This document shows, in pieces, positions 32,570 through 62,100 of a DNA stretch of 64,000 nt. Both the position numbers and the translations under genes were made by a program. The stretch is from Camelus ferus (Eukaryota): the NCBI RefSeq assembly GCF_009834535.1, contig NC_045696.1, positions 5,582,001 through 5,646,000 on the forward strand, given 5' to 3'. The notes under the pieces are model-generated. The model searched no databases. It had not been told where the DNA came from and worked only from the letters and a program-made list of their open reading frames with translations. Within the stretch, counting starts at the first letter, position 1. Each line of letters begins with the position of its first letter.

Positions 32570-33149
32570 GGGTGACCCCTAAGATTCATATACAAGGACA
32601 TTCAATAAGGCATTGATACAATGGAAGAGGTGAGGAGGAAGAGGAGGTGAGGAAGAGAAAAGAGAGTAATATTAACATTCATTAATTATACCCTTATATC
32701 ACTAAAAATGTCTATGCAATCGCTGCATAAGAATCACCTATAATTCTAAAATTGAGGTGATTTTTACTTTTTCTTGGTACTTTCCTATACATTGTAAATT
32801 CTCAACACCAACACATACTGCTTTATTATCAAGAATTTCTTTCACCAAGAAATCCATCTTTATGAGACGTTAACAAGAGCGCTCCGCTCTCGGTCCACGC
32901 CCCTTCCAGGCTGGGAACCCTCTATGTGCATCGGGCGCGGCCAGGGTGCAGGCGGGCCCAGGGCGCCAACGAGGGACGGCGGGAGGCCCGCTTGCAAACG
33001 TCTAGGCAGTCAGGTGGGGAGGGACTCACACCCCGACCCTAGACCGCTGGCCCCTGCCCGGCGAGACCTGGTGTCCAGTGCGCGTGCGCGCAGACCTCGC
33101 GGCCCCGCCCCTGGCCCCTCCCCTCCTGTTCAGACCAGTCCCAGGAGGC

Positions 33150-33229
33150 CCCTCGTGCCAGTTTCCAGGGCGACGCGTCCGAGCCCGGAGGCCGCGGGGT
33201 TGGCGCTACCGCGGAGTCGCGCGGAGCAG
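33150..33229 (+). other. LCA5L: Probable LCA5L non-coding first exon (start approximate)
   Basis: Donor CAG|gtaacc at 33229/33230 inside the CpG island, downstream of GC-box and NRF1 motifs. Confidence 0.5.
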
Positions 33230-33245
33230 GTAACCGCCTCGCCTC

Positions 33246-33266
33246 GCCGCCGCCGCCGCCGCCGCC
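33246..33266. repeat. (GCC)7 trinucleotide repeat in the CpG island
   Basis: Direct count. Confidence 0.95.
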
Positions 33267-33779
33267 GCAGCCCGAGGTCTCCGCCCAGCTGCAGCCGGAG
33301 CCTCCTGCTAAACTTTCCGAGCCTTCCGGTGTTGCCCGGTCCCACAACCCTAGCCCCTGCCGAGCTCGGGCCTCGCTGCCTGGCTTTCACTCGAGTTGGT
33401 AACGTAGCGGATCGTCCCGCACCTTCCTCCGGCAAAGCGCGTGCAGCCTGGTGGAGAGCCGCCCTCGGCGTCCTTCCCTGCTCGGACAGCGTGACTGCGC
33501 CTTCGCAGCACCCTCACAAGCCACCCTGGCCCGGGGGCCCGCCCGCACGCGGTCCGGCCACAGGAGGCGTTCGGGCAGGGGTGGGCCTGGAGCTGGCCCG
33601 GGTACCACCAGGGGAAGGGGCCAGGCCCCAGTCACCCCACCCCACTGCCCACCCCCGACAGACGGGGGCCGATTTTACCCCCTCCCCCAACTTGCAGGCT
33701 TTGGCCCACAGGTAACTTTTTTCAGACCAGTTTTTCATTGCGGAGCATGACCTTGAACCTTTTCTTTTTTAATCTAGAA

Positions 33780-46747: not shown

Positions 46748-47248
<501 letters not shown>

Positions 47249-48229
47249 TGAGGAAATAGAGAAATTAAGGATAATTACAAAAGAATGGAAAGCTAGGCTC
47301 AGAATGTAGAGCCTAGCCCCCGGCACGACTTCCCGTCCTGCAGCCTACTAGCGAGGTTGGTTCCGTTTTCAGTTAACAGGAGGCTGTGTTGCAGAGTACC
47401 GCAGTACCTGGATTTCGCTGGGTTTCTGCCTTTCATCTCAGCTGAAGGATCAAGGTTTGCATCACCAATGAAATGTAAATATCTGTCTCAACAGCCCAGG
47501 AAGATGGTCTTCGAGTCCGGTGAGGCATATTGGCAAAGACGATCTTTAGAAAGAGAGTTGGTTCAAAAGGCTGTTAATAATGTCATTTCCTTGTAGATTT
47601 TAAAAGTGCCAACACCATCAGCTCCTAATGGTCCAAACTGGGATGGGCTGTGTGATATCCTCAATCTGCTCGCTCTCCTGACCTCCTGCCCAGACTGTGA
47701 TTACTCACACGTGGGCAATCCTAGGCTTGTAAATAATCCCTATGTAGAGATAGCTGGAACTCTTTTCCCACTATGACCATAAGAATTGCCCCTAGTCTCC
47801 AGGCGGGAAATAAGAGCCTCCTCTCTGCGGGGCACATCTACTGTCAGGTTTACCCAGAGCCTGTCTCCCACCCCCAGCCTGCGATGACCAGCTGTGCCTG
47901 GGACCCCCTGTGCTACTGCTGGACCATCTAGACTCTCCAGTTCCCCTTATTCCTAGTTACAGAGCCAGGACTCCTAATCTAAGACCCATGTCTGGGGACC
48001 CCAGGAAATCCTTTGCATTTTTTGTCTCTGTTTGCATTTGTGAACTTTTCTAGGGAGAAGAGGACCCACAGTTTCCCTCCAAATTCTCAAAAAGTTAACA
48101 GACCTTTATCTCCAGAGGTGGGGGTCCCGCATCCCTGGCAAAGCCCAGGACGGAAGAGTCTGTTAGAAGTCTGTCTGGCCGTTTGTAGAGATTATCACAA
48201 CAGGACATACATCGTGCACAGTTAGATTC

Positions 48230-48546
48230 CACAGTTCGAATCCCTTATCTGGATCTGAAATTTACAAAGCTCTGAAAACCAAACGTCTTTCACATCTTTG
48301 GCACCAAAACTGATTTGGTAAAAAACCTAATTTGAACTGACATGAAACCGATCTTTATTAATTTCACTTAGAGTGAAATATAGTCATATATTTCACCACA
48401 GAAATCATCTTTGATGAAAGTACGCTGTCGCCAACCCTGCTGGGAGTACTATGGAAACACTATAGGTGCACCACAAAAAATAAACCCCCAAAATTCAGGA
48501 ACGCTCTGGCCCAGGGATTCATGACAAGGGCTCATCCAACAATGTA
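48230..48546. mobile_element. TcMar-Tigger-like DNA transposon remnant
   Basis: CAGTTCGAATCCCTTATC left end and a degenerate inverted right end (GACAAGGG...TGTA). Confidence 0.4.
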
Positions 48547-48599
48547 TTACATCTTCTACTGAGTCTAGACTCTCGGCTGTGATTTATAATAGAAATAAA

Positions 48600-48795
48600 T
48601 ACAGGTTTTAGTGTCAGAGAAGACCTTACTTTCCATTTGTTTTATGTCACTTTGTGGTTGGTTATGTAACCTTGGACAAATGACTTATCATCTCTAGCTA
48701 TAAAATGGACTACCACTGACCTTACAGAACTGTATTAAATGAGATAGCTAAATACAAATACCTGGCCTAAAGCACAGGTATTCATTAAATGTCAG
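48600..48795 (+). mobile_element. MIR
   Basis: TGTAACCTTGGACAAATGACTTA...CTATAAAATGG...ATTAAATGAGATA. Confidence 0.7.
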
Positions 48796-48912
48796 TTCCT
48801 TCCCCTTCCAGCTGGCGTGTGTCCGTGTGTATGTGAGTGGTGGTGGGGGGGGGGGTATTACACATACGTGTGTATTTATGGACCTACATATCTACAGACA
48901 TATCACTAGTAA

Positions 48913-49470
<558 letters not shown>

Positions 49471-51380
49471 TAGAAATGTTCAGTTTCCAAAATTAATATG
49501 AAGAGGGGGCACATTCATCATGCTTGCCCCCGTGGGGTGAAGCGTGACCAGCTGCTTTACTGGGCACAGCACACGGATGGTGGTGTCCGATGGGGAGGGG
49601 GGACAGCGAGGGCAGGGAGGAGAGGCAGAAACAGCTCCTTTTGTGGCTGGGCTCACTGTCTGGACATGACCGTTCTCCAGCAGTCCAGCTGCTGGTGTCA
49701 GGGGTGTCTGTTCGTGTGCTGAAGGGGTTTTGCTGGGTTGGGTTGTGTTGTGTGAAACCTCTCAGAAAGCAACCCTCTACTTCAAACTGCTTAGTAAAAG
49801 GCTCTTCCCTAAACCCTAAACTGCATCTCCTCAGCACCTCTCCTGGTACCCCCTCACCAGCTTGTCCAGCCACTACCACAGAGGCACTTCTGGTGTTTTA
49901 GAAACAGGAATTTTTCCCAAATAATATCCCTGGGAACAAATATGGAAAAGGAATTTAAATCATTGAAGAAATGAATAGATTGATATTCCTCAGCCGTGTC
50001 CGGCTGTCAAAAGCTTGGGGATTATGTTATGAAGGGTAATTTGGGAGAAACGCGTCAGTTATATTGAGAATTCTGCCTGTTTTACACTGGGTATTTTTTG
50101 GTCTCGATGGACATGAACATAAATGGAATCAATTTCCTGTTTAATTCCTTAGTGGTGAGAGACAAGTATTTTCTACGATCTTGAAGTAGTAAGAAGATAT
50201 CAAGTTCACTTTAACCCCTTTTTTATCTCAGTTATTTCTTCTTGGGTAAAAATCGTCCTCTGTTCTCACATAAAATGGACATGTGAGCTACAGAAAGTAA
50301 AGAGCAACCTCGTTTTTCAGTCATGTAACTACTAGACCAAAGTTCCGTTGTTTGGCCTTTCAGGTAAATTGGATTCATCTTAACATCTTCTGTCATGGAA
50401 CAGGAAGTGTGTTTCTCTCTCATCCGCAGATTTTGACACACACATGTTTAAGTAATTCCTGTTTTTATGCTGTCACCAAAGCCAAAAAGAATTCAAGAAC
50501 TAATTCGCTATTTTCCTGGCAGAAGCACTTGGTTGTATGGGAACTTTCATTTGGTTGTAGGGCATTTGGTGGGGGGAAAACGTTTGTGGGCTAAAACACA
50601 GGCATTTTTTAAAATACTAGTATTTCAGGAAGTGGGATTTTTTAGCAATTACTTCACCCTATTAGCTTACCATATTTCCCACTTTTCTTTAATGAGAAAG
50701 TATTAATGTTAGAATGGGGGAGACCACACTTTGTGGAAAAAAGGTAAAGAAAAGCCCTTTTAGCCAAGCTGCTGTCAAAATCCAGATCAAACAATTCTCC
50801 AGTAAGACAGGTCTCACCCCAGAGAGAAGGTGGCTATGCAGCAGTGAGTCCTGTGTGTTTGGAGACGGTCACTGTGCTAAATCAGTCCTTTTGCTGTCTT
50901 CTACTCCATCTAAGTGGTGTGGCTCTGAGTTCCGATCACAACCTCCAGTCTCAGTTCCGGGGAATCGTAGTCCCGGACGGTCTGCGCTGACACTGGTCAG
51001 CTCTGGCAAGAGAGGCTTGAAAGCCTTTTAGAGAGTGCGCTGTGCCAGGTCAGCAAAACACTTCGTTTCAACAGACCTGCTTTGGTTTAGTTTTAAAGTA
51101 AGACATTGATTACATTTACTGATTTTCAAGATCTGCTCAAAAAATTTTTTTATCAAGTGCAGAATGTAAAAACCATTAGGCCGGAAACATTTATTCTCTA
51201 AAGCTGGGACCAGGGGTTTTTCACTTTGTCGGGGGCAGGGGGGCTTTTTAGTTCTAATACACACCCTCTAGACAAGCCACCTACTAACATTGTATTAAAA
51301 TTTTGCTCTTTTCATACATGTAGTTAGTTCCATTACGTTTGAAGTTTTGTATAATGTTACATTGGTTCTAGAAGAGTTGA

Positions 51381-51614
<234 letters not shown>

Positions 51615-51917
51615 TAAATTGTAATTACTTGACTTTAGGAATATCTTTCTCAAATTAACTTTTTTCCCTACCATCATGTGAACAGATAGAGGATCTGAAA
51701 TTATTAGAATGAGTTAACAGCCTGGTGAGTATGTACTGTAATTAGAAAAATTAAAGCTCTAATCTATCATTAAAAAGACTTTATCATTTTATGTCATCAC
51801 ATGAAGTAATATTACTGGTTTTTGTTAACACTTTAGTGGAAACCCAAATAAGTTTTTCAATTAAAAAATTAACATTATTAAAATAGAGTAATTTTAGAGG
51901 CCCATAAATTCATTTTA

Positions 51918-52103
51918 TTTATTTTTTTATTTTTTTTTAATTGAAGTATAGTTGATTTACAATATTGTGTTAGTTTCAGGTATACAGCAAAGTGATTCAG
52001 TTATTTTTTTCAGGTTATTTTCCATTATAGGTTATTACAAGATATTGAATGCTGTTCTCAGTGCTATACAGTAAACCCTTTTAGCATATCTATTTTATAT
52101 ATA
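51918..52103 (-). mobile_element. Short L1 3' terminus with 15-bp TSD
   Basis: TSD cataaattcatttta at 51903 and 52104. Confidence 0.88.
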
Positions 52104-52170
52104 CATAAATTCATTTTACAGTCTCACTTGCCAATACGCTTGCAAAACTATCTTTTAAAGTGTGCTCTAA

Positions 52171-52549
52171 CTTGGAGGGTATTATGCTAAGTGAAACAAG
52201 TCAAATAAGAAAAAGACAAATACTGTATGAGATCACTTATATGTGGGATCTGAAAAATACAGCAAACTAGTGCACGTAACAAAAAAGACACAGAATCACA
52301 GATACAGAGAATAAATCGGTGGTTACCAGTGAGGGTGGGGGGTGGGGAGGGGCAGTCTGGGGTAGGGGAGTAGGAGGTTCAAACTCTTAGGTATAAAATA
52401 AGCTACAAGGATATATTGTACAACTTGGGGGATATAGCCAGTATTTTATAATAACTATAAATGCAGTATAACCTTTAAAAATTATGAATCACTGTATTAT
52501 ACACTTGTAATTTACATATTGCACAGCAACTATACTTCAATATTTTAAC
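52171..52549 (+). mobile_element. L1 3' UTR fragment with TSD
   Basis: TSD agtgtgctctaa at 52159 and 52550; ends CAACTATACTTCAA. Confidence 0.88.
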
Positions 52550-54995
52550 AGTGTGCTCTAAAAAATGAGAATTAAAAATATTTACTTTTTCAGAGTTTGC
52601 TCTTTCTGCCTTGAAGATTTCTAAAGTATTTGATAAGATACTTAAGAAACACAGGTCTTTTCAGCCTCAACTAGTAAATCTTAAGCTCGATTCTTTAAAA
52701 CAAGAATCTTTAACTTTTATGACAGGTAGGGAGTTCAGATTTCCTGGGAGCCATGAGAGCACGGAGAGGCAGGGGAAGGATATTAGGGGAGAAAGCTGGA
52801 TGTAAGCTCTCCCTTGTAAAGCAGGGAGAGAGTCCTGTTCCTTTCTTCTCTGGAGCCTCAGGAAACTTCAGAGAGAATATGCCAGAAAATGGGCGTGGCC
52901 ATAACCACCAGCTTAGAAATCCAACAGGAGAGGCTTCAAGATCCATTGGTCGAGGCAAACACACACACACACACGGAGACACAACCAGGGAATTTTAAAA
53001 TAAATTTGTGCTATCATATGCAACCATATGCACATAAATACTATGCAGTCATTAAAAAACAATTTTGACAGGAGAAAAGCTTAATGATTGATAAAATATT
53101 TAATGAAAAGAAAGATCCAAAATTTATTTTAAAAAAGAAAAGTAAATATACCTCCACACAATGGATTTCTGTGCATCTGTAAAAAGGAATGAGGACTCTT
53201 TACATTGTAATATGAGTAATCGCCAGGATACATTGATAAATGAAAAAGGCAGGCAGAGGAGCGTGCAGCATGCCAGCATGTAAGTAAAGGAGACAGAACA
53301 AATACATCCACATATTTGCTTATAATTAGAAAAACCCGTAGTAGGATGACAACGGAAGTGGGGAGAGAGCAGCAAGTAGAAGGGACAGCTGTAGAACCTA
53401 GGTTTCCTCAAATATATTTTTGGTAGATTTGACTTTGGAACCATGTAAATGTTTTGCATAATTATGAAGCAGAATGAAATGTAAAAAAAATTGGAAATCA
53501 TTCCCTAAAAATACAAAGTAAAATGAAGGAAAAAAATGAACCCACTGCATATTCACTGTTGGCATAATGTCACAGAGAGACACCATTCCAGGCGACCTAA
53601 AGCACGTTAATTTCACTGCATGTGCCTAGTGAAACACACTCCCGCTGACAGTGTAGGAATGGTGATTTTGAGACTGTTGTGTATATCTTAGGAGATAAAC
53701 CACATGGTGAACTATATTCATGTCATTGAGAACTGGGATTTGGGGATGGAAGAAAGAAAATACAGAAGTCAGATAAGGTCAAATAGTAGACCTGGCTGTG
53801 AATTTAAATGAAAGTATGAATTTATGACATTCTATCTTTAAAAATAAGTACATATTTCCTAATGCGACCAACTCACCTGCAGGGAACACCCCTAGTGCAA
53901 GCTTGTTCTTCAAAATCCATAACCCACTAAAAAGAACTGAGTCACCTTAAAAAAAAAATTCTAGGTCTGGAGCATGAAAGACGTACTATGTGAGCCCGGG
54001 ACACTGTCCTACAAAAAAGCAAGAAAAGTGTAAGAACTATCAGGGGAACGTCAGAGAGACTCAGGAGCCATCAGTCTGGAATAGGTTCCTAATGGCCAGA
54101 GATGAGGCGGTTTAAGGACTGATAAAGGGAACTGCGTGGACAGAAACTTATCAAATGTATAGAAATCAAAAAGTTCATAAGGCTGCTTACAAAACAGAAC
54201 ACCTCAGTGATTAGTCATCTTGAGTATACTAGGGAACCTAGCACACTATTTCAAAAACTGGTAAATAAAGGAAAGGAAACAATTACTTTCACCTTTCCCA
54301 TACCCGGAGTAATCAAATAGTTTCTGAGGAGGGAAGATCCTCTTTGTAAAGGCATTCTGATCAATAATGTCAAAGGAATGATAGGATGACAATATCACTA
54401 TTTTGGAACTTTTAATGAGTTAGTGAATCTAAGCAATGATCGTCACAAAAGGGAAACCATCTGACGCTGTGCACTTCCTGACTCCTGTACACACCTCCAC
54501 CCAGGGAGTGTTCCTGCCAAAAAAACCTATACCTTGATTGATTAAACATTTAGATCTAACAACCAATTTAAAAGAAATACAGGGGTCAGGGGAACATGAT
54601 AGATAACACCTCAGGGACACAATCAACATCACACTGTGGGAAACTCTACAGCACAAACAACCCAGTTTCCACAACAAATAAATAGCAAAGTGAAACAAAC
54701 AAAAGAGATGATGGTGGGAACTTACAGAAAAGAGACCATGACGGAAAACTCAACAATGGAAAAACAAATGACCCAATTCAAAAATGAAAAAAATTACTGA
54801 AATAGACATTTCCCCAAAGATAGACAAATGATCAACTAGCACATGAAAAGATGCTCAAGTGTTTATGAGGGAAACACAAATCAAAACCACCATGAGGATG
54901 GCTACTATCAAAAACAAGTATTGGCCTATTTACAATAGCCAAGACAGGGAAACAACCTAAATGTCCATCAACAGATGACTGGATAAAGTTGTGGT

Positions 54996-55012
54996 GTATA
55001 TATATATATATT

Positions 55013-55048
<36 letters not shown>
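54996..55048. repeat. (TA)n(CA)n compound microsatellite inside L1
   Basis: Direct observation. Confidence 0.93.
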
Positions 55049-55050
<2 letters not shown>

Positions 55051-55145
55051 GGAATACGACTCAGCCATAAGAAAGACTGAAATAATGCCATTTGCAGCAA
55101 CATGGATGGACCTGGAGATCGTCATTCTAAGTGAAATAAGCCAGA

Positions 55146-55325
55146 GGGGAGGGAATAGCTCAAGTAGAGTGCATGCTTAGCATGTCCGAGGTCCTGGGTT
55201 CAATCCCCAGTACATCCTCTAAAAATAAATAAACCTAACTAACCCCCCACCTCCACCAAAAATGAAAATAATTAAATAATACAATAACAAATAAAATATT
55301 TTTTTAAGATACGTTAAAAAAAATA
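55146..55325 (+). mobile_element. tRNA-derived SINE adjoining an L1 3' fragment
   Basis: tRNA head, B box GGTTCAATCCC, family tail. Confidence 0.88.
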
Positions 55326-56057
55326 CATGGAAGAAAAATAAGACACCCAGGGAGTGTGTTACACAAAGTAATTTAAAACCACCCATTGTGACACTTCCTC
55401 TGACTCAGTCATTGAACCCAGGCCTCTCACCGATGGTCCCTCCTGCGTTCAGGATATACTCCTACCTCCCACCAGTCCTGTCTCATCCGGAAGGATGAGA
55501 CTGCCTTTCATGCTTCATGGTCACCTCTAGGGCCGACCCAAGGGAAAGAGGAGTAGAAACTTTAAGGATGTTTTAGACTCCTGACTATTCCAGAGATTTG
55601 AGCCTAAGGGGACACAGAACCCCATTCAATTTAAAAATACAGCAGACTAGTGAATAAAACAAAACAAATGTAGATTCACAGATCTAGAGAGCAAACAGTG
55701 GGGAGAGGGGAGGGGGAGAATGGGGTGGGGATTAAGAAGTCCAAACTATTATGTATAAAATAAGCTACAAAGATATATTGTACAGCACAGGGAATACAGC
55801 CAATATTTTATAATAACTATTCATGGAGTATGACCTTTAAAAATTGTAAATCACTATATTGTTCACCTGTAACTTGTATATTGTACATCAACTATACTTC
55901 AATTTAAAAAACAAAAAAAACACCTTTTTTTCCCTCAACAAACTAGGATTTCAAACTTTTTGTTTTGCCAAGACTTTAAAAAGTCAGCACTGAGATTTAA
56001 AGCTGAACAACAATGTCTTTGTTGCAGGCTGCACCTCTGGCACTCGCTGTGTAAATG

Positions 56058-56240
56058 CAGCCCCGTCTAACAGAATTTTGTGTGAGGAGAGTGTTCGGTC
56101 CCACAGATCAACACTGTGGTCCCCACTCACATGCAGCGACTGAGGGCTTGAAATATGGGTCGTATGACTGAGGACTGAATTTTTTTGTAATTAATTTAAA
56201 TCACAGCGGGGTTCGTGGCCACCGTATTGGACCACACAGA
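56058..56240. mobile_element. MER3-like hAT-Charlie element
   Basis: GTCTAACAGAA...GACTGAGGACTGAATTTT...GTGGCCACCGTATTGGAC. Confidence 0.6.
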
Positions 56241-56530
56241 ACAAAAACTTCATGACACAGTCCCAGGGGACAGAAAAACTACAGTGAAAGGAACTGGCTT
56301 GCAGAGTCTTCAGAAATGTTGTCCCCATCACAATGGTTTGTCACTGTTAAAAAGCTAGTACTTTCTGATGTCAGAAATGATATATAACAAAATGGCCCAT
56401 TTCTCTTTCTGCTGGAATCTATAGTTTTGCTCAAAGACCGCTGAGCTCACCCTAAATCGTTTTTTACAAGAACCTCAGGTTGAGAAAAAGCAAACATTTA
56501 TAGAAATGTTGGTACTGCAATTCCCTTTAG

Positions 56531-56677
<147 letters not shown>

Positions 56678-56949
56678 TAATTTATATCATCAAAATTTTT
56701 AAAAATTTTTTTATTTAAAAAAAATCATTGTATTAGGCATTGAAACATTTTGTGGTTCTAGAATAATGAAACCTAACATGGTTGAAACAGCTAGAGGAGA
56801 AGAGAGATCCTTTCCTGTCTTCCCATCCTCTGTCCTCTCTGTCCTTACTCAGGCAGGTTAGAGGGTAACTTTTCAGCTTGAAGCAAAACGTCTGCCAGAT
56901 ACTGACCTTTCTAAGTATGTCCCTTAGCCAGTGTGTGGATGTTTAAAGT

Positions 56950-57320
56950 TACCTTTATTTCAGTACAATTTACCTCAATAAAATGCATGCATTTTAAGTG
57001 TGCAGTTCAGTAGGTTCTGACGAGCGCGTGTACCCACGTAACCACCACCCCGCCAAGATGCAGAACATCCCATCTCCTCAGGAGGCCCCCTCCTGCCCTG
57101 GCAGTCCGCGGTCCCCCGTCCCCGGCCTGCGGCCACCTCTGGTTTCCCTTGGGTCACAATAGCTTAGTTTGCCTGTTGTGGAATTTCCTGCGTGGGCTCA
57201 TGCAGCAGGTCCTCTCTTGTGCCTGGCTGCTTTTGTTCAGCATGACGTTTTTAAGATTCATCCATGTTGCGCCATGTGGTTAGTTTGCACCTTTTTATTG
57301 CTGAGCAGTATTTTTTCCTT
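56950..57320 (-). mobile_element. L1MB-like 3' UTR fragment
   Basis: TTTAAGTGTGCAGTTCA...ACCACCACC...CAGCATGACGTTTTTAAGATTCATCCATGTTG. Confidence 0.75.
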
Positions 57321-57689
57321 CAGGACAGGACGTCCTTATTTTCCCCTCCAGATCTCCCAGCCCAAGATTCTGCTCAGAAGACGTTCAGTAGGAACACTCC
57401 CCTCTCATTTTGCTAGAAGTAACAACATGTTTACTTTTAAAGGCTGTGACCTCAGATTTCCTGGCCTTCCTTCCTTTGTTCCCTTCTGGCTCATAGACCA
57501 GAGTGACAGCCAGCAGAGAGGACGCTAAAATCAAGCAGGGGGTCATTTAAATGGAATAACACTTCCAGGAAAGGGACTGCTGGGTTTAGTGGTCATGCCC
57601 TTTGGCGTGGGCAGCGCAGCCATCAGTGGCCAAGAACTCTGGCACAGGAGACCTTGGTGGCTCACCCTCTCACCATTGCATGTCTACAG

Positions 57690-57799
57690 TTTTGGTTTTT
57701 GGTTTTTGGTGTTTTTTGTTAATGGAGGTACTGGGGATTGAGCCCAGGACCCCGTGCATGCCAAGCACGGGCTCTGCCCCTGAGCTATACCCTCCCCCC
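57690..57799 (-). mobile_element. tRNA-derived SINE
   Basis: Reverse-complement head (GAGCTATACCCTCCCCCC); degenerate TSD tgtctacagtttt / tgtcttcagcttt. Confidence 0.88.
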
Positions 57800-57931
57800 G
57801 CCTGTCTTCAGCTTTGAACCCTTCTGCAAGCAGGGAAGCCGTGTCCTCCAACAGCAGTGCTGACCCAGCCTAACTCCTGCTTGTTTGGTGCTCTCTGCCT
57901 GGGAACCCATAACCCTTGTGGCCCAAAATGA

Positions 57932-58546
<615 letters not shown>

Positions 58547-59679
58547 TAGTCTTTTTTTTAATTGAAGTAGAGTCGATTTGTCTCCTTTACGCTTAGTTTA
58601 TTCTTTTAATTGTGAATTACTGTGTGTGTATAAAAGTACACATAAAAGAGAGATCTTCCATTTAAAGAACCGTTGTAAAATGAACACCTGTGAAGCCACT
58701 TCCTTGCTTAAGCAGCAGAACGTGGGTGTCCCCTAGGACACCCCGTGGGCCCCTCGTGACCACAACCCTCCCCTGCCCCCCAGAAACACCACCCTCTTCA
58801 GTTTGATGCCAGTCATCCCTTCCTTTCCTCACCCTCCCTATCCTGCGCGGACCCTTCAACAACGTGTTCAGTTCTGAAAAACTGAGTCACAAACCCAAAC
58901 CCAGCTGAGCCAAGGGCAGCACTACCCCTCATGGAGACTAACGAAGCATCCAGAGAAGGCAGGCTGGACGGAGGCTGGCTGCAGCTTCCCGAAGGCCTGG
59001 GGCACAGCCAGAGCCCTGGTCACGGGTCCTGGGAGGAGGGGCCCATGGGAGCCGGGTGGCCTCAGGGCTGCTCTGCAGGTGCAGGGAGAGTCCCGGGTGG
59101 GCTGCTCGGTGCTTCTTGTGCTCAGATCCCAGAGCTGATGTCCAGCTCTCAGGAGTCTGTCAGAGCAGAGCATTCCTGGGGGGTGAAACCAGGGTCCTCG
59201 GCCAACCCAGACTGCCGGGACCAGAGGGTGGGGACACCTCCGCCAGGCCCTGGTCAGAGTGGACCCGGGATGCTGGAGGCTGGAGGGTCAGCCCTTAATG
59301 CTTAAGCCCCTTGGCCTCCGGCCTGTGCCCCATCCCTCTGGAGCACAGCTGTCATCCTGGGGCCTCCCTTCACCTTTCCCGCTGGCGCCTGGCGCCCCTT
59401 CTTCACTGGGCCTTCTGTTTCTTCCGCCAAATCCTCCCCTTCCTTGGTTAACACCATCACATCCTGCCAGCACAACCTCTTACTTGCTCCCTGAGAATGG
59501 ATGCGTGTGAGGTAAATCTGTGTGCCTTTCATCCCGAGGTGTCATTATCCGACCCTAGACTTGACTAATAATTGACTAGAAAGAAAATTCCGGGTTGGAG
59601 ATCATTTTCCCTCAGAATTTTGAAGATGCTGCCCCGTTGTTTTCATGTTAACATATTGCTCAAGGGAAATCGGGTGAAA

Positions 59680-61030
59680 CCGCACACGGCTGGGCAGGCC
59701 CAACCTCCCTGGAGAGAGCAGTCACTGGGAATAGCCCCCCAGGTTCCCCCGGAGCCGCGGGGAGGGGCCTCAGTACAGGCCGGGAGGGGCCACACCTGAG
59801 CTGTGCGGTGTGGCCTTAGAATGAAGTTTAATTAACACCCCGGGCCCCACCCGGAAAGCCACGCTGCCTGGTGCAGGTCCTGCTGTGGTCCCCGGTCCAT
59901 TGACGTTTTCCACCTATTTTTTTTTGTCCTTTTGGTACTTCATATCGTCCTAGGAAGTTGACTCACTCACTCGACAACTATTTTCTGAGCATATGCTGTG
60001 TGTCAGGCTCTGATCCAGGCATTGGGGGTTGGGGGCAGCGGAGAGGGCAACATGCCCGCCCTGGGTGCGCGTGTCCCGGGGCGGGAAGATGTGCGGGACG
60101 TTTAGGTGAGCGGGTGGCAGGCGCTGCAAAGACGGGCCAGAGAAGGAGGTGGGGAGGGGGCCGTGGTGGGGAGATGAGGGTGTCGATGGCACCTCAGTAG
60201 GACTCGCAAGGAGGGAGGAAGTGACCCACGGGGTCATCCGAGACGAGCACTCCAGGCAGAGTGCCCCGCAGACGCCCGGGGAAGGGGGAGAGATCACGCA
60301 AATTTTATGAATGCCATTTTTCTCTTGTTTCATGATTCTCATTTATTCGGTGTGTGTATAAATTCACATGACAGCGCCTTCCTCTGTATTCCAGTGTCAG
60401 ATGCATGTATTTTCTTTCCTTTTTGTCATTTTAATGTGCCCGACCGGAGGTGTAGCTCAGTGTGCTAAGTATCCAGCTTGCAGTAGAAACCCATCACTCT
60501 TAAAGACACTAAGCTGGCTGCGTTTCTAACACAGGCTTATCCCAGGACGGGGGGCGTCCGGAAGCAGAGCCGTCTCTGGAGAACGCTGGGCCGCAGAGAG
60601 AGACAGTGGCCGATCCAGACAGGAAACCCACGTTACTGAAGGAACAGGAACTGCCACCGAAAGGCGCTCAGATGACCCATCCTGAAGGGGAAGGCGGTCA
60701 GGAGGACGAGCCAGGAAAAGAAGAGTTTAGACGAAGTCCGGAAGTCAATGACACGGGCGACGTGCCGGATAAAAACGCCGCTCCAAGTGTCAAGACACCC
60801 TTCAGACAGAGAAAGCGTTACTCCTTCACAGAAGCCACGGAAAACCTGCACCAGGGGCTTCCCGCCGCGGGGGGCGCGGCCGCCCCGGGCGGCGCCAGGG
60901 CCGCGCTCGGCACCGGCCGGCGTCGCGGGCCCGCGGGGGAGCCGAGGCCCGAGGGGCCGGCCGGCGCCGGCCCGCCCTCCTGCGGGAGGTCCTCCCGAGC
61001 AAGCGCGAAGGACACGGCTTTCAGGGAGAA
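59680..61030. other. Intragenic GC/CpG-rich domain over the last LCA5L intron and exon
   Basis: Many unmutated CpGs; 60861-60980 has only 8 A/T in 120 nt. Confidence 0.75.
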
Positions 61031-61259
61031 GAAAAGCAGTCTGATGGAAGAGCTCTTCGGCTCAGGCTGCATCTTAAAAAACGACCAAGCTGGTCCTGCG
61101 GTCGTTAAAGAGCCTGAGGAGAGGCTGCAGAGTGAGATGCACCGCGTGCCTCCTGGTCAGGCCTCCGCCAGCAATGCTTTCGGAGATTCTAAAGTAACTG
61201 TGGTCAGTTCTATCAGGTCATCTTCACCGACAGAAGGAAAGAGGAAAATAATTATTTAA
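60535..61259 (+). CDS. LCA5L: LCA5L terminal coding exon
   Basis: ctaacacag|GC; continues in frame into ORF 60606..61259 with [26 protein letters not shown] and C-terminal [13 protein letters not shown]. Confidence 0.95.
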
Positions 61260-62100
61260 ATATAATCAATATCCTAACCCACTCTGGTTTGATATTCTGG
61301 TCTTATGTGCCTTGAATCTTACCATTTTAATTACATACGTGTATGTGTTTTCACTACTTAAATCGACTTTGGATAATTAAGGTTTTGTTCTAGTGCTCAT
61401 CTGACTTTAAAATCCACTGTACATTAGCCAAGGACAACGTTTCAAAAACAAAATTACATCTTTTTTTCCCTACAACTGAAACATGTCCACTATCTTTTGG
61501 AAGACTGATTTATCATATGGTTCAATATTCCATGAGCCTCTGTAGCCAGTAAGTTAGTCAACCCAAGACATACACATCTCCTGCAAGTGAGAACTGTGTC
61601 AGGAGTCAAATGACTCTAACTTAAAACCACGGAAGCAGCTCTGAAAGGAACCCATATAATGAGAAGCCTCTCTTTAAATTTAAATTTTAAAAAAAGCAGT
61701 GATGACCAAGCTTGGTTTTATGAAAATTATTTTTGAGTGTTCTCTTATTCCGCTAAACTGGGCGTCTAATGTCCTGCCTTTGTAGGTGACACTTTCCTCA
61801 TGTACACCTACGGTTCAGCATTTTTTATTTATATTTGTTGCACACCTGTACCTTGACCCTTTTTCTGTCAATCTTCTTAGAAACAAGCATAATGGTATAA
61901 TTCGTGTCCATTCAAGTGAGCTGTTCAGTCCTAATGAATGTATTTGTTACACCCGGAATATTTTATATTCGGACTATACAGAGGGGGCTGTACTCCCAGT
62001 GTTAATCCATTAACTTACCTTCATTTATTGACAAGGGAAACTTATTTATGATTTAGACCATACTATTTCCAAACATGTTTATGGGTTGGTGTGTAATACT

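Follow-up and report, generated by a model that had tools for sequence, protein, structure and literature searches.

On the camelid stem, the central part of LCA5L's last coding exon was probably rewritten by strong, long-lasting GC-biased gene conversion (gBGC). Within the window (the whole 64-kb stretch of Camelus ferus DNA analysed here), a short block of this exon combines extreme G/C content with amino-acid replacements that are common to four camelids, run towards G/C, taper away on both sides, stay in the orthologous reading frame and erase a motif of bony vertebrates. The features needed for the argument are as follows.

60535..61259, + strand: last coding exon of LCA5L (acceptor AG 60533-60534, stop TAA 61257-61259)
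46778..58517, + strand: LCA5L's six upstream coding exons, which serve as internal control (GC3s 0.40), as tblastn blocks at approximately 46778-47101, 48943-49449, 51399-51536, 56531-56615, 58126-58233 and 58400-58517 (all +)
60861..60995, + strand: GC core, LCA5L codons 538-582 (C. ferus numbering), GC3 44/45
60819..60863, + strand: upstream anchor, Y524 to P538, kept in camelids
60969..60983, + strand: codons 574-578, GPPSC in camelids versus YEPSF in other vertebrates
61029..61067, + strand: downstream anchor, K594 to G606, kept in camelids
60441..61190, no strand: CpG island by sequence criteria covering the last exon (750 bp, GC 0.62, CpG o/e 0.88, 64 CpG)
59921..60350, no strand: stretch of the last intron resembling a CpG island (GC 0.58, o/e 0.72)

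The GC-rich last exon of camelid LCA5L

The last-exon product is 100% identical to the C. ferus lebercilin-like protein (P0001). The other 119 listed of 165 protein matches are 45-64% identical to it and, barring a few labelled hypothetical or otherwise, bear the name of mammalian LCA5L. The lebercilin domain (PF15619, precomputed on P0001) and seven colinear blocks in the window identify the gene as the LCA5L ortholog; a Pfam search of the last exon by itself gave no match. LCA5L is reported at the basal body and axoneme, mainly in tissues with motile cilia (PMC3555842, a meeting abstract), and the accessible part of PMC9481538 gives the paralog LCA5's C-terminal part as predicted to be mostly disordered. 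In the fifth coding block, 58221-58233 (+ strand) has one base extra relative to other camelid proteins and reads to a stop just before the splice donor; the C. ferus LCA5L record, which is flagged LOW QUALITY, has another residue there. An assembly error within a G run is the most likely source of the extra base, given intact records for C. bactrianus, C. dromedarius and alpaca. A CpG island at 32791-33620 (GC 0.69, o/e 0.86, 83 CpG, with a short GCC run) is the presumed LCA5L promoter. A short frame at 31074-31024 (- strand) that starts MVIKVF resembles the first coding exon of the head-to-head neighbour gene, which we take to be SH3BGR. An Rfam tRNA match at 57723-57794 (- strand, 48.9 bits), adjoining T-rich repeats at 57690-57714, is most likely a tRNA-derived camelid SINE.

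The original prediction described 60861-60980 as 93% GC and CpG-dense, with more AT-rich exons upstream. A recount agrees: 112 of the 120 bases are G or C (93.3%), with 8 A/T and 26 CpG. The peptide written at the time is found in the translation of the frame 60513-61259 (+ strand), and the human segment given there matches database protein P0058 over the 45 residues shown. No other 120-mer in the window has as much GC; the next, at 0.817, falls in the CpG island around 33183. CpG o/e is 1.0 in the patch versus 0.36 for the whole window, TpG+CpA is depleted (0.66) at 60801-61000, and 24 of the 45 third positions in the patch are located in CpG. GC3s, which records a state and not a count of substitutions, is 44/45 in the patch, 62/107 and 45/85 in the flanks and 0.40 (164/414) in the upstream exons. 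If third positions followed the upstream-exon rate (0.40), at least 44 of 45 would be G/C with probability 8e-17; with the rate seen elsewhere in the last exon (0.56) the figure is 1e-10, and none of 100,000 random draws with upstream codon usage went above 29/45.

The GC shift is wider than the 120-base patch and tapers across the whole last exon. GC3 climbs from 9-14/20 to 18-20/20 over about 180 bases and is 7/20 at the stop, so that biased change is clustered at the scale of a hotspot: a peak of about 180 bases, a taper over an exon of 725 bases and upstream exons at 0.40. On the 3' side of the exon GC falls to 0.33-0.38 (0.33 directly after the stop codon). In the last intron (59001-60400) GC is 0.48-0.68 and CpG o/e climbs towards the exon. 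Its far part, 59001-59400, has GC of 0.66-0.68 yet CpG o/e of just 0.24-0.31, unlike the CpG-rich stretch closer to the exon, and could be an older, methylated GC gain. The camel CpG island over the last exon may be a product, not a cause, of a hotspot. No Rfam RNA family was found in the patch, and its DNA secondary structure is no better than that of shuffles (z -0.32). One G-quadruplex-like pattern on its + strand is expected at such GC and is given no weight.

An assembly artefact was rejected for the patch itself, because the C. bactrianus, C. dromedarius and alpaca records carry the same residues and public sequencing runs agree. At least 20 of the 24 runs among the matches listed contain at least half of 120 sampled words from 60300-61500. 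Fourteen of those runs, under four organism labels, reach a share of 0.94-0.97, and one is possibly the source of this DNA; five runs recorded as RNA have shares of 0.69-0.90, from which no evidence of expression is drawn. In an older pair of records (P0128/P0122), the alpaca protein is without 19 residues directly before the patch and the dromedary model is without the entire last exon, gaps that are expected since very GC-rich DNA is sequenced poorly.

Across residues 538-582 C. ferus matches C. bactrianus and C. dromedarius exactly, and the alpaca has one gap and two residue differences. Sequences of pig, warthog, hippo, whales, cattle, sheep and deer follow the usual mammalian form. The GC-rich state is derived within mammals: the Gly/Ala/Arg/Pro fraction of the patch is 0.80-0.82 in camelids versus a median of 0.38 in 126 mammalian proteins, and is low in afrotherians, primates, colugos and other even-toed ungulates. 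In the upstream exons the camel fraction (0.17) is close to that of hippo (0.18). As the patch is common to four camelids and absent from other even-toed ungulates, the change is placed on the camelid stem. According to the accessible part of PMC13751797, the split between Old and New World camelids, which the change precedes, is more than 11 million years old.

The rewritten segment includes a motif that is otherwise widely conserved. Y574, E575 and F578 are retained in 115, 117 and 115 of 119 other mammals, where camelids have G, P and C, and each of these replacements (Y to G, E to P, F to C) includes A/T to G/C changes. YEPSF was found in 36 of 48 distant representatives; its carriers, by protein name, include turtle, crocodile, gecko, caecilian, axolotl, coelacanth, sturgeon, gar and smelt. 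The motif, shared across the fish-tetrapod split, would be more than 400 million years old. The neighbouring anchors are stricter still, with Y, F, N, L, H, G, L and P of the upstream anchor and K595, E601, L, F and G of the downstream anchor present in 119/119 other mammals. Constraint has therefore been overridden in camelids, where the ancient motif is gone and the two strongest flanking motifs are intact. Two amphibian-type proteins, P0217 (Bufo bufo) and P0219, are also without YEPSF and keep both flanking motifs, which is an independent loss.

Direction, rate and mode of change

Changes were polarised by comparing camel codons with outgroup-majority residues along the path that minimises A/T to G/C changes. 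The expected weak-to-strong bias is present: changes towards G/C and towards A/T number 20:19 in the upstream exons versus 19:0 in the patch, a ratio that partly restates composition since few A/T are left to reveal reverse changes. The exon flanks give 26:2 before the core and 13:2 after it, and the whole exon 58:4. Changed residues make up 20/36 of those polarisable in the patch (9 of 45 are not), 36/100 before it, 17/83 after it and 43/401 upstream; Fisher tests of patch versus upstream give p=8e-5 for direction and 1e-9 for rate. Unpolarised comparison agrees. Camel has the GC-richer residue than pig in 67:11 cases in the last exon versus 35:48 upstream (p=6e-9); the patch ratio is 23:1, which bears out the statement that most replacements are to residues with GC-rich codons, and is 21:1 against hippo and 24:1 against cow. 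At codon positions 1-2 of the patch, camel has 0.24 A/T per codon versus 0.76-0.94 implied by six outgroup proteins, and in the upstream exons it equals the outgroups. Where the residue is unchanged, third positions are G/C in 16/16 cases in the patch versus 138/353 upstream, so selection on the protein is no explanation for them. Two metagenome-contig scans for orthologous non-camelid DNA gave 599 and 490 pattern matches, none confirmed, and silent change is accordingly read from the GC3 state.

The gap-free camel-human alignment originally described fits the anchor spacing, which is 66-67 residues in 10/10 proteins examined: alpaca and pig have 66, and human, cow, hippo, rhino, blue whale and three Camelus proteins have 67. 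Of the 45 patch residues, 16-21 are identical to those of six orthologs in the same register. In-frame scores against orthologs are 57-84 and those of the five other frames 14-41, which excludes compensating frameshifts and, at the protein level, any foreign-frame origin. The patch changed by point substitution in the orthologous frame and not by indel or insertion.

The amount of change is large. To reach 44/45 from a starting GC3 of 0.4-0.7 takes a cumulative A/T to G/C hazard of 2.6-3.3 per site (lower bound 0.9-1.6). The neutral expectation for the camelid stem branch is about 0.05 per site, tens of times less. Dromedary and alpaca differ at 18/239 residues in the last exon versus 7/428 upstream, a ratio of 4.6 (p=2e-4) that lies at 0.7-2.0 in four control pairs. 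After the camel-alpaca split, about 6-7 changes towards G/C and 2-3 in reverse were counted by eye in the last exon, where the bias is not clear. Together, the needed hazard and the fast dromedary-alpaca last exon speak for a site that lived long or was active repeatedly rather than for a single brief PRDM9 episode, and lend indirect support to the long-lived hotspot of the original prediction.

Mechanism, recurrence and rival explanations

These patterns are what gBGC would be expected to leave. A recombination hotspot a few hundred bases wide would have stood over the middle of the last exon for a long time on the camelid stem, and heteroduplex repair favouring G/C alleles would have fixed A/T to G/C variants whatever their effect on the protein. 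Third positions would thereby have risen to 98% G/C, and about 70% of the A/T at codon positions 1-2 would have been replaced. A loosely constrained linker could in this way have become Gly/Ala/Arg/Pro, with YEPSF overwritten and the strongest pair of flanking motifs preserved. The CpG-rich island so formed is likely to escape methylation in the germline and might continue to draw PRDM9-independent recombination; the site would then be long-lived. From substitutions and composition, we infer recombination, a fixation bias in preference to a mutation bias, hypomethylation and longevity. As its textbook trace gBGC leaves, on one branch, a G/C-ward peak spanning a few hundred bases that silent and replacement sites share (PMC12290510; also the accessible part of PMC11161765, which describes GC* peaks of roughly 400 bp, to which the camel GC3 profile is similar in shape). 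Equilibrium GC3 is about 94% in exon-level gBGC episodes of rodents (PMC12290510). Substitution patterns are, by the same part of PMC11161765, unsuited to measuring recombination at one locus. The gBGC reading of the original prediction is thus supported; an ancestral GC-rich state, a lack of bias and frameshifts, any of which could have overturned it, did not turn up.

Comparable shifts occur in other mammals. Patch Gly/Ala/Arg/Pro is at least 0.55 in 16/122 non-camelid proteins, most of which have unremarkable fractions upstream; they come from shrew, fruit bat, gundi, pocket mouse, degu, sloth, tree squirrels, pipistrelles, Phyllostomus, meerkat, hyena and canids. Sorex, gundi and star-nosed mole have upstream fractions of 0.23-0.26, so their shift is partly regional. 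Clustering was tested, as a protein-level proxy, in 26 non-overlapping non-camelid pairs of living species with signs permuted within pairs. Plecturocebus, Smutsia and Suricata, parts of whose records looked mis-annotated, are outside these pairs, and Sorex, Rousettus, Condylura and Ctenodactylus, which came from a divergence-favouring search, are descriptive only. After scan-wide correction, over-dispersed directional asymmetry occurs solely in windows within residues 451-594:

60600..61031, + strand: zone of lineage-directional GC shifts in non-camelid mammals, residues 451-594

The peak window, residues 487-531, has z 7.0 (scan-wide p<0.001), and the best windows have scan-wide p<=0.002. 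The pooled zone, which was picked after the scan and whose test is limited by imperfect alignments in disordered regions, gives z 7.3 (p<0.001), or p=0.004 without the four strongest pairs. Pooled clustering elsewhere in the 26 pairs was not found (first exon p=0.09, coiled-coil part 0.97, tail 0.78). The non-camelid peak lies about 150 bases upstream of the camelid core, and the camelid patch position itself has z 3.8 (pointwise p=0.001, scan-wide 0.07). Nine later pairs, of species first used after the zone was set, give p=0.017 for the zone and p=0.022 for the patch, with two partner species re-used and much carried by pocket mouse versus gopher (16:0 in the patch). Indian muntjac and red deer differ at 10/45 patch residues and 25/573 elsewhere (p=7e-5). 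Within the same linker, felids, hyena and meerkat have a common deletion of nine residues at residues ~548-556, and several bats and rodents have other deletions.

A tentative reading, to which we give somewhat less than even chances, is that the middle of the last LCA5L exon is a conserved PRDM9-independent intragenic hotspot. It would have been switched on repeatedly across mammals, with convergent Gly/Ala/Arg/Pro recoding, and in camelids alone for long enough to destroy the motif, GC gain and hypomethylation reinforcing each other. The lineages that hint at such re-use are camelids, common shrew, Egyptian fruit bat, gundi, pocket mouse, degu, two-toed sloth, tree squirrels, pipistrelles, Phyllostomus, hyena, meerkat, canids and, weakly, muntjac.

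Another account, which we regard as less likely than not, is that one or a few short-lived PRDM9-directed hotspots struck the camelid exon by chance and that the shifts of other mammals are independent and visible through weak constraint. It is a form of the gBGC explanation without longevity or re-use, and its probability is a share of that explanation's own. Camelids appear to keep the N-terminal domains of PRDM9: the accessible part of supplement 1 of PMC5519329 lists for C. bactrianus, C. dromedarius and V. pacos a PRDM9-type gene with KRAB-SSXRD-SET and three catalytic tyrosines, in rows labelled PRDM7 and with zinc fingers absent from the table. Episodes are also common, with 29,845 in 71,040 exons of 48 rodent species, and 65% of those classified are punctual (PMC12290510). 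The zone is singly significant in just 5/26 non-camelid pairs and 0/9 later pairs, and the signal of the 45-residue patch weakens to p=0.06 without two pairs. The first coding exon (residues 1-108) has GC shifts too, in rabbit (P0079/P0077, 27:4 versus kangaroo rat) and Rousettus (P0241, 26:7 versus Rhinolophus), and is a second, 5' site of biased change in LCA5L in some lineages. However, a hazard of about 3 per A/T site far exceeds the yield of a short episode (non-synonymous A/T to G/C change rises 6.9-fold in punctual rodent episodes, PMC12290510), and the last exon was still fast after the camel-alpaca split. Clustering is also confined to residues 451-594, as opposed to the equally divergent first exon and the tail (residues 595-669).

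It is improbable that mutation locally biased towards G/C, or hypermutation tied to recombination, acted along with a relaxed constraint on the camelid LCA5L tail. Such a combination would account for the excess of GC-neutral changes (9 per 36 codons of the patch and 11 per 100 preceding it, versus 6 per 401 upstream), which conversion bias alone does not predict, and the same pattern between species would be expected from it. Relaxed constraint also fits P0217 and P0219, whose sequences without the motif imply that YEPSF is dispensable. Mammalian mutation is generally biased in the opposite direction, towards A/T. The accessible part of PMC13186367 describes this same A/T-ward tendency, which speaks against mutation bias here; relaxation alone would lift changes in both directions, whereas the exon has 58:4, and the GC-neutral changes may be multi-step paths through saturated sites.

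Loss of methylation alone, in which a new CpG island halted CpG decay and G/C built up without conversion bias, is highly improbable. The CpG o/e of 1.0 in the patch and 0.88 over 60441-61190, the TpG+CpA value of 0.66 and the 24/45 third positions in CpG are what it would produce. The original prediction had offered a new unmethylated CpG island as an alternative cause, and by itself this does not suffice: only 6/19 changes towards G/C convert TpG or CpA to CpG (13/19 do not), and third positions that cannot form CpG are G/C in 10/11 cases in the patch (114/255 upstream). A lower flux from G/C to A/T would moreover be unable to give a fivefold amino-acid rate or fixation in a conserved motif, and the presumed promoter island at 32791-33620 reaches no more than 0.82 GC.

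That positive selection favoured a new, disordered linker rich in Gly/Ala/Arg/Pro in the cilia or sperm flagella of camelids is hard to credit. Many amino-acid changes fall on one branch and expression is reported in motile-cilia tissues (PMC3555842, a meeting abstract), but silent sites are equally extreme and all classes of change run towards G/C; LCA5L is also absent from the accessible parts of six supplement files of a camelid selection study (PMC12127551), a weak test that covers Old World camels. Block replacement, whether by compensating frameshifts, GC-rich repeat insertion, ectopic conversion or assembly error, has a sharp core in its favour and a negligible probability given residues in register at the same spacing, low scores in other frames, biased change for about 300 bases on each side and agreement among four camelid records. 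A tandem-repeat origin was dismissed; the 11-bp tandem signal at 60878-60906 is weak (score 37).

Significance and comparison with known systems

The gBGC explanation makes LCA5L an unusually clean and near-complete case of non-adaptive protein change, in which biased repair fixed replacements in a vertebrate-wide motif and which would be mistaken for camelid adaptation in a scan for selection. As camelids do without LCA5L's YEPSF, they offer a lead on the role of this motif in motile cilia. If the site is re-used across orders, one locus would offer a dozen natural replicates for how default hotspots arise within genes, a test of reinforcement between GC gain and hypomethylation and of tolerance to protein load, and a case of molecular convergence without selection. 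Literature naming LCA5L, seen mostly at title and abstract level and with few subscription journals, held no account of the camelid case; the supplements searched for it were those of PMC11161765, PMC4839675, PMC5519329 and PMC12127551, and other gBGC or camelid gene lists could contain it. Camelids are not named in the searched parts of the text and supplements of PMC11161765. The imprinted human WRB region (PMC4839675, PMC6088800, both in their accessible parts) is in a neighbouring gene, with no tie to the LCA5L exon established; islands 4 and 5 of the human WRB locus are described there without coordinates (PMC4839675).

The closest known systems are gBGC-accelerated exons (PMC12290510; Berglund et al. 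2009 as cited there), which have been studied in rodents and primates, not camelids. In both, clustered A/T to G/C changes affect replacement sites and, as the GC3 state suggests for the camelid patch, silent sites of one exon on one branch; the camelid GC3 is near the reported 94%, and the other LCA5L exons are untouched. The camelid patch differs from gBGC-accelerated exons in being near-complete, in the loss of a bony-vertebrate motif and in having no compensatory reversal in the patch. It apparently spans more than one branch, like the '2-branch' class of PMC12290510. Default hotspots (Joseph et al. 2024, the accessible part of PMC11161765) have in common with the patch a peak of a few hundred bases and CpG-island-like sequence. 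Their use differs sharply between close relatives, as may that of the LCA5L zone (tree versus ground squirrels, Pipistrellus versus Eptesicus, pocket mouse versus gopher, with canids among the shifted lineages). The default hotspots in that part of the paper are defined by breaks in Prdm9-null mice and sperm hypomethylation and are mostly promoter-like, whereas the LCA5L site lies in a 3' coding exon, some 27 kb away from the island presumed to be the promoter. Mouse Fxy and the high-GC regions of gerbils (cited in PMC12290510) represent the same passage from persistent gBGC to Gly/Ala/Arg/Pro, and the accessible part of PMC6636035 describes the same drift in exome-wide GC/GARP landscapes. Those cases span whole genes or about 100 kb, whereas LCA5L exons 2-14 kb upstream are unchanged. 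gBGC is a known process, to which the camelid exon adds the loss of an ancient motif and the hint of a re-used site.
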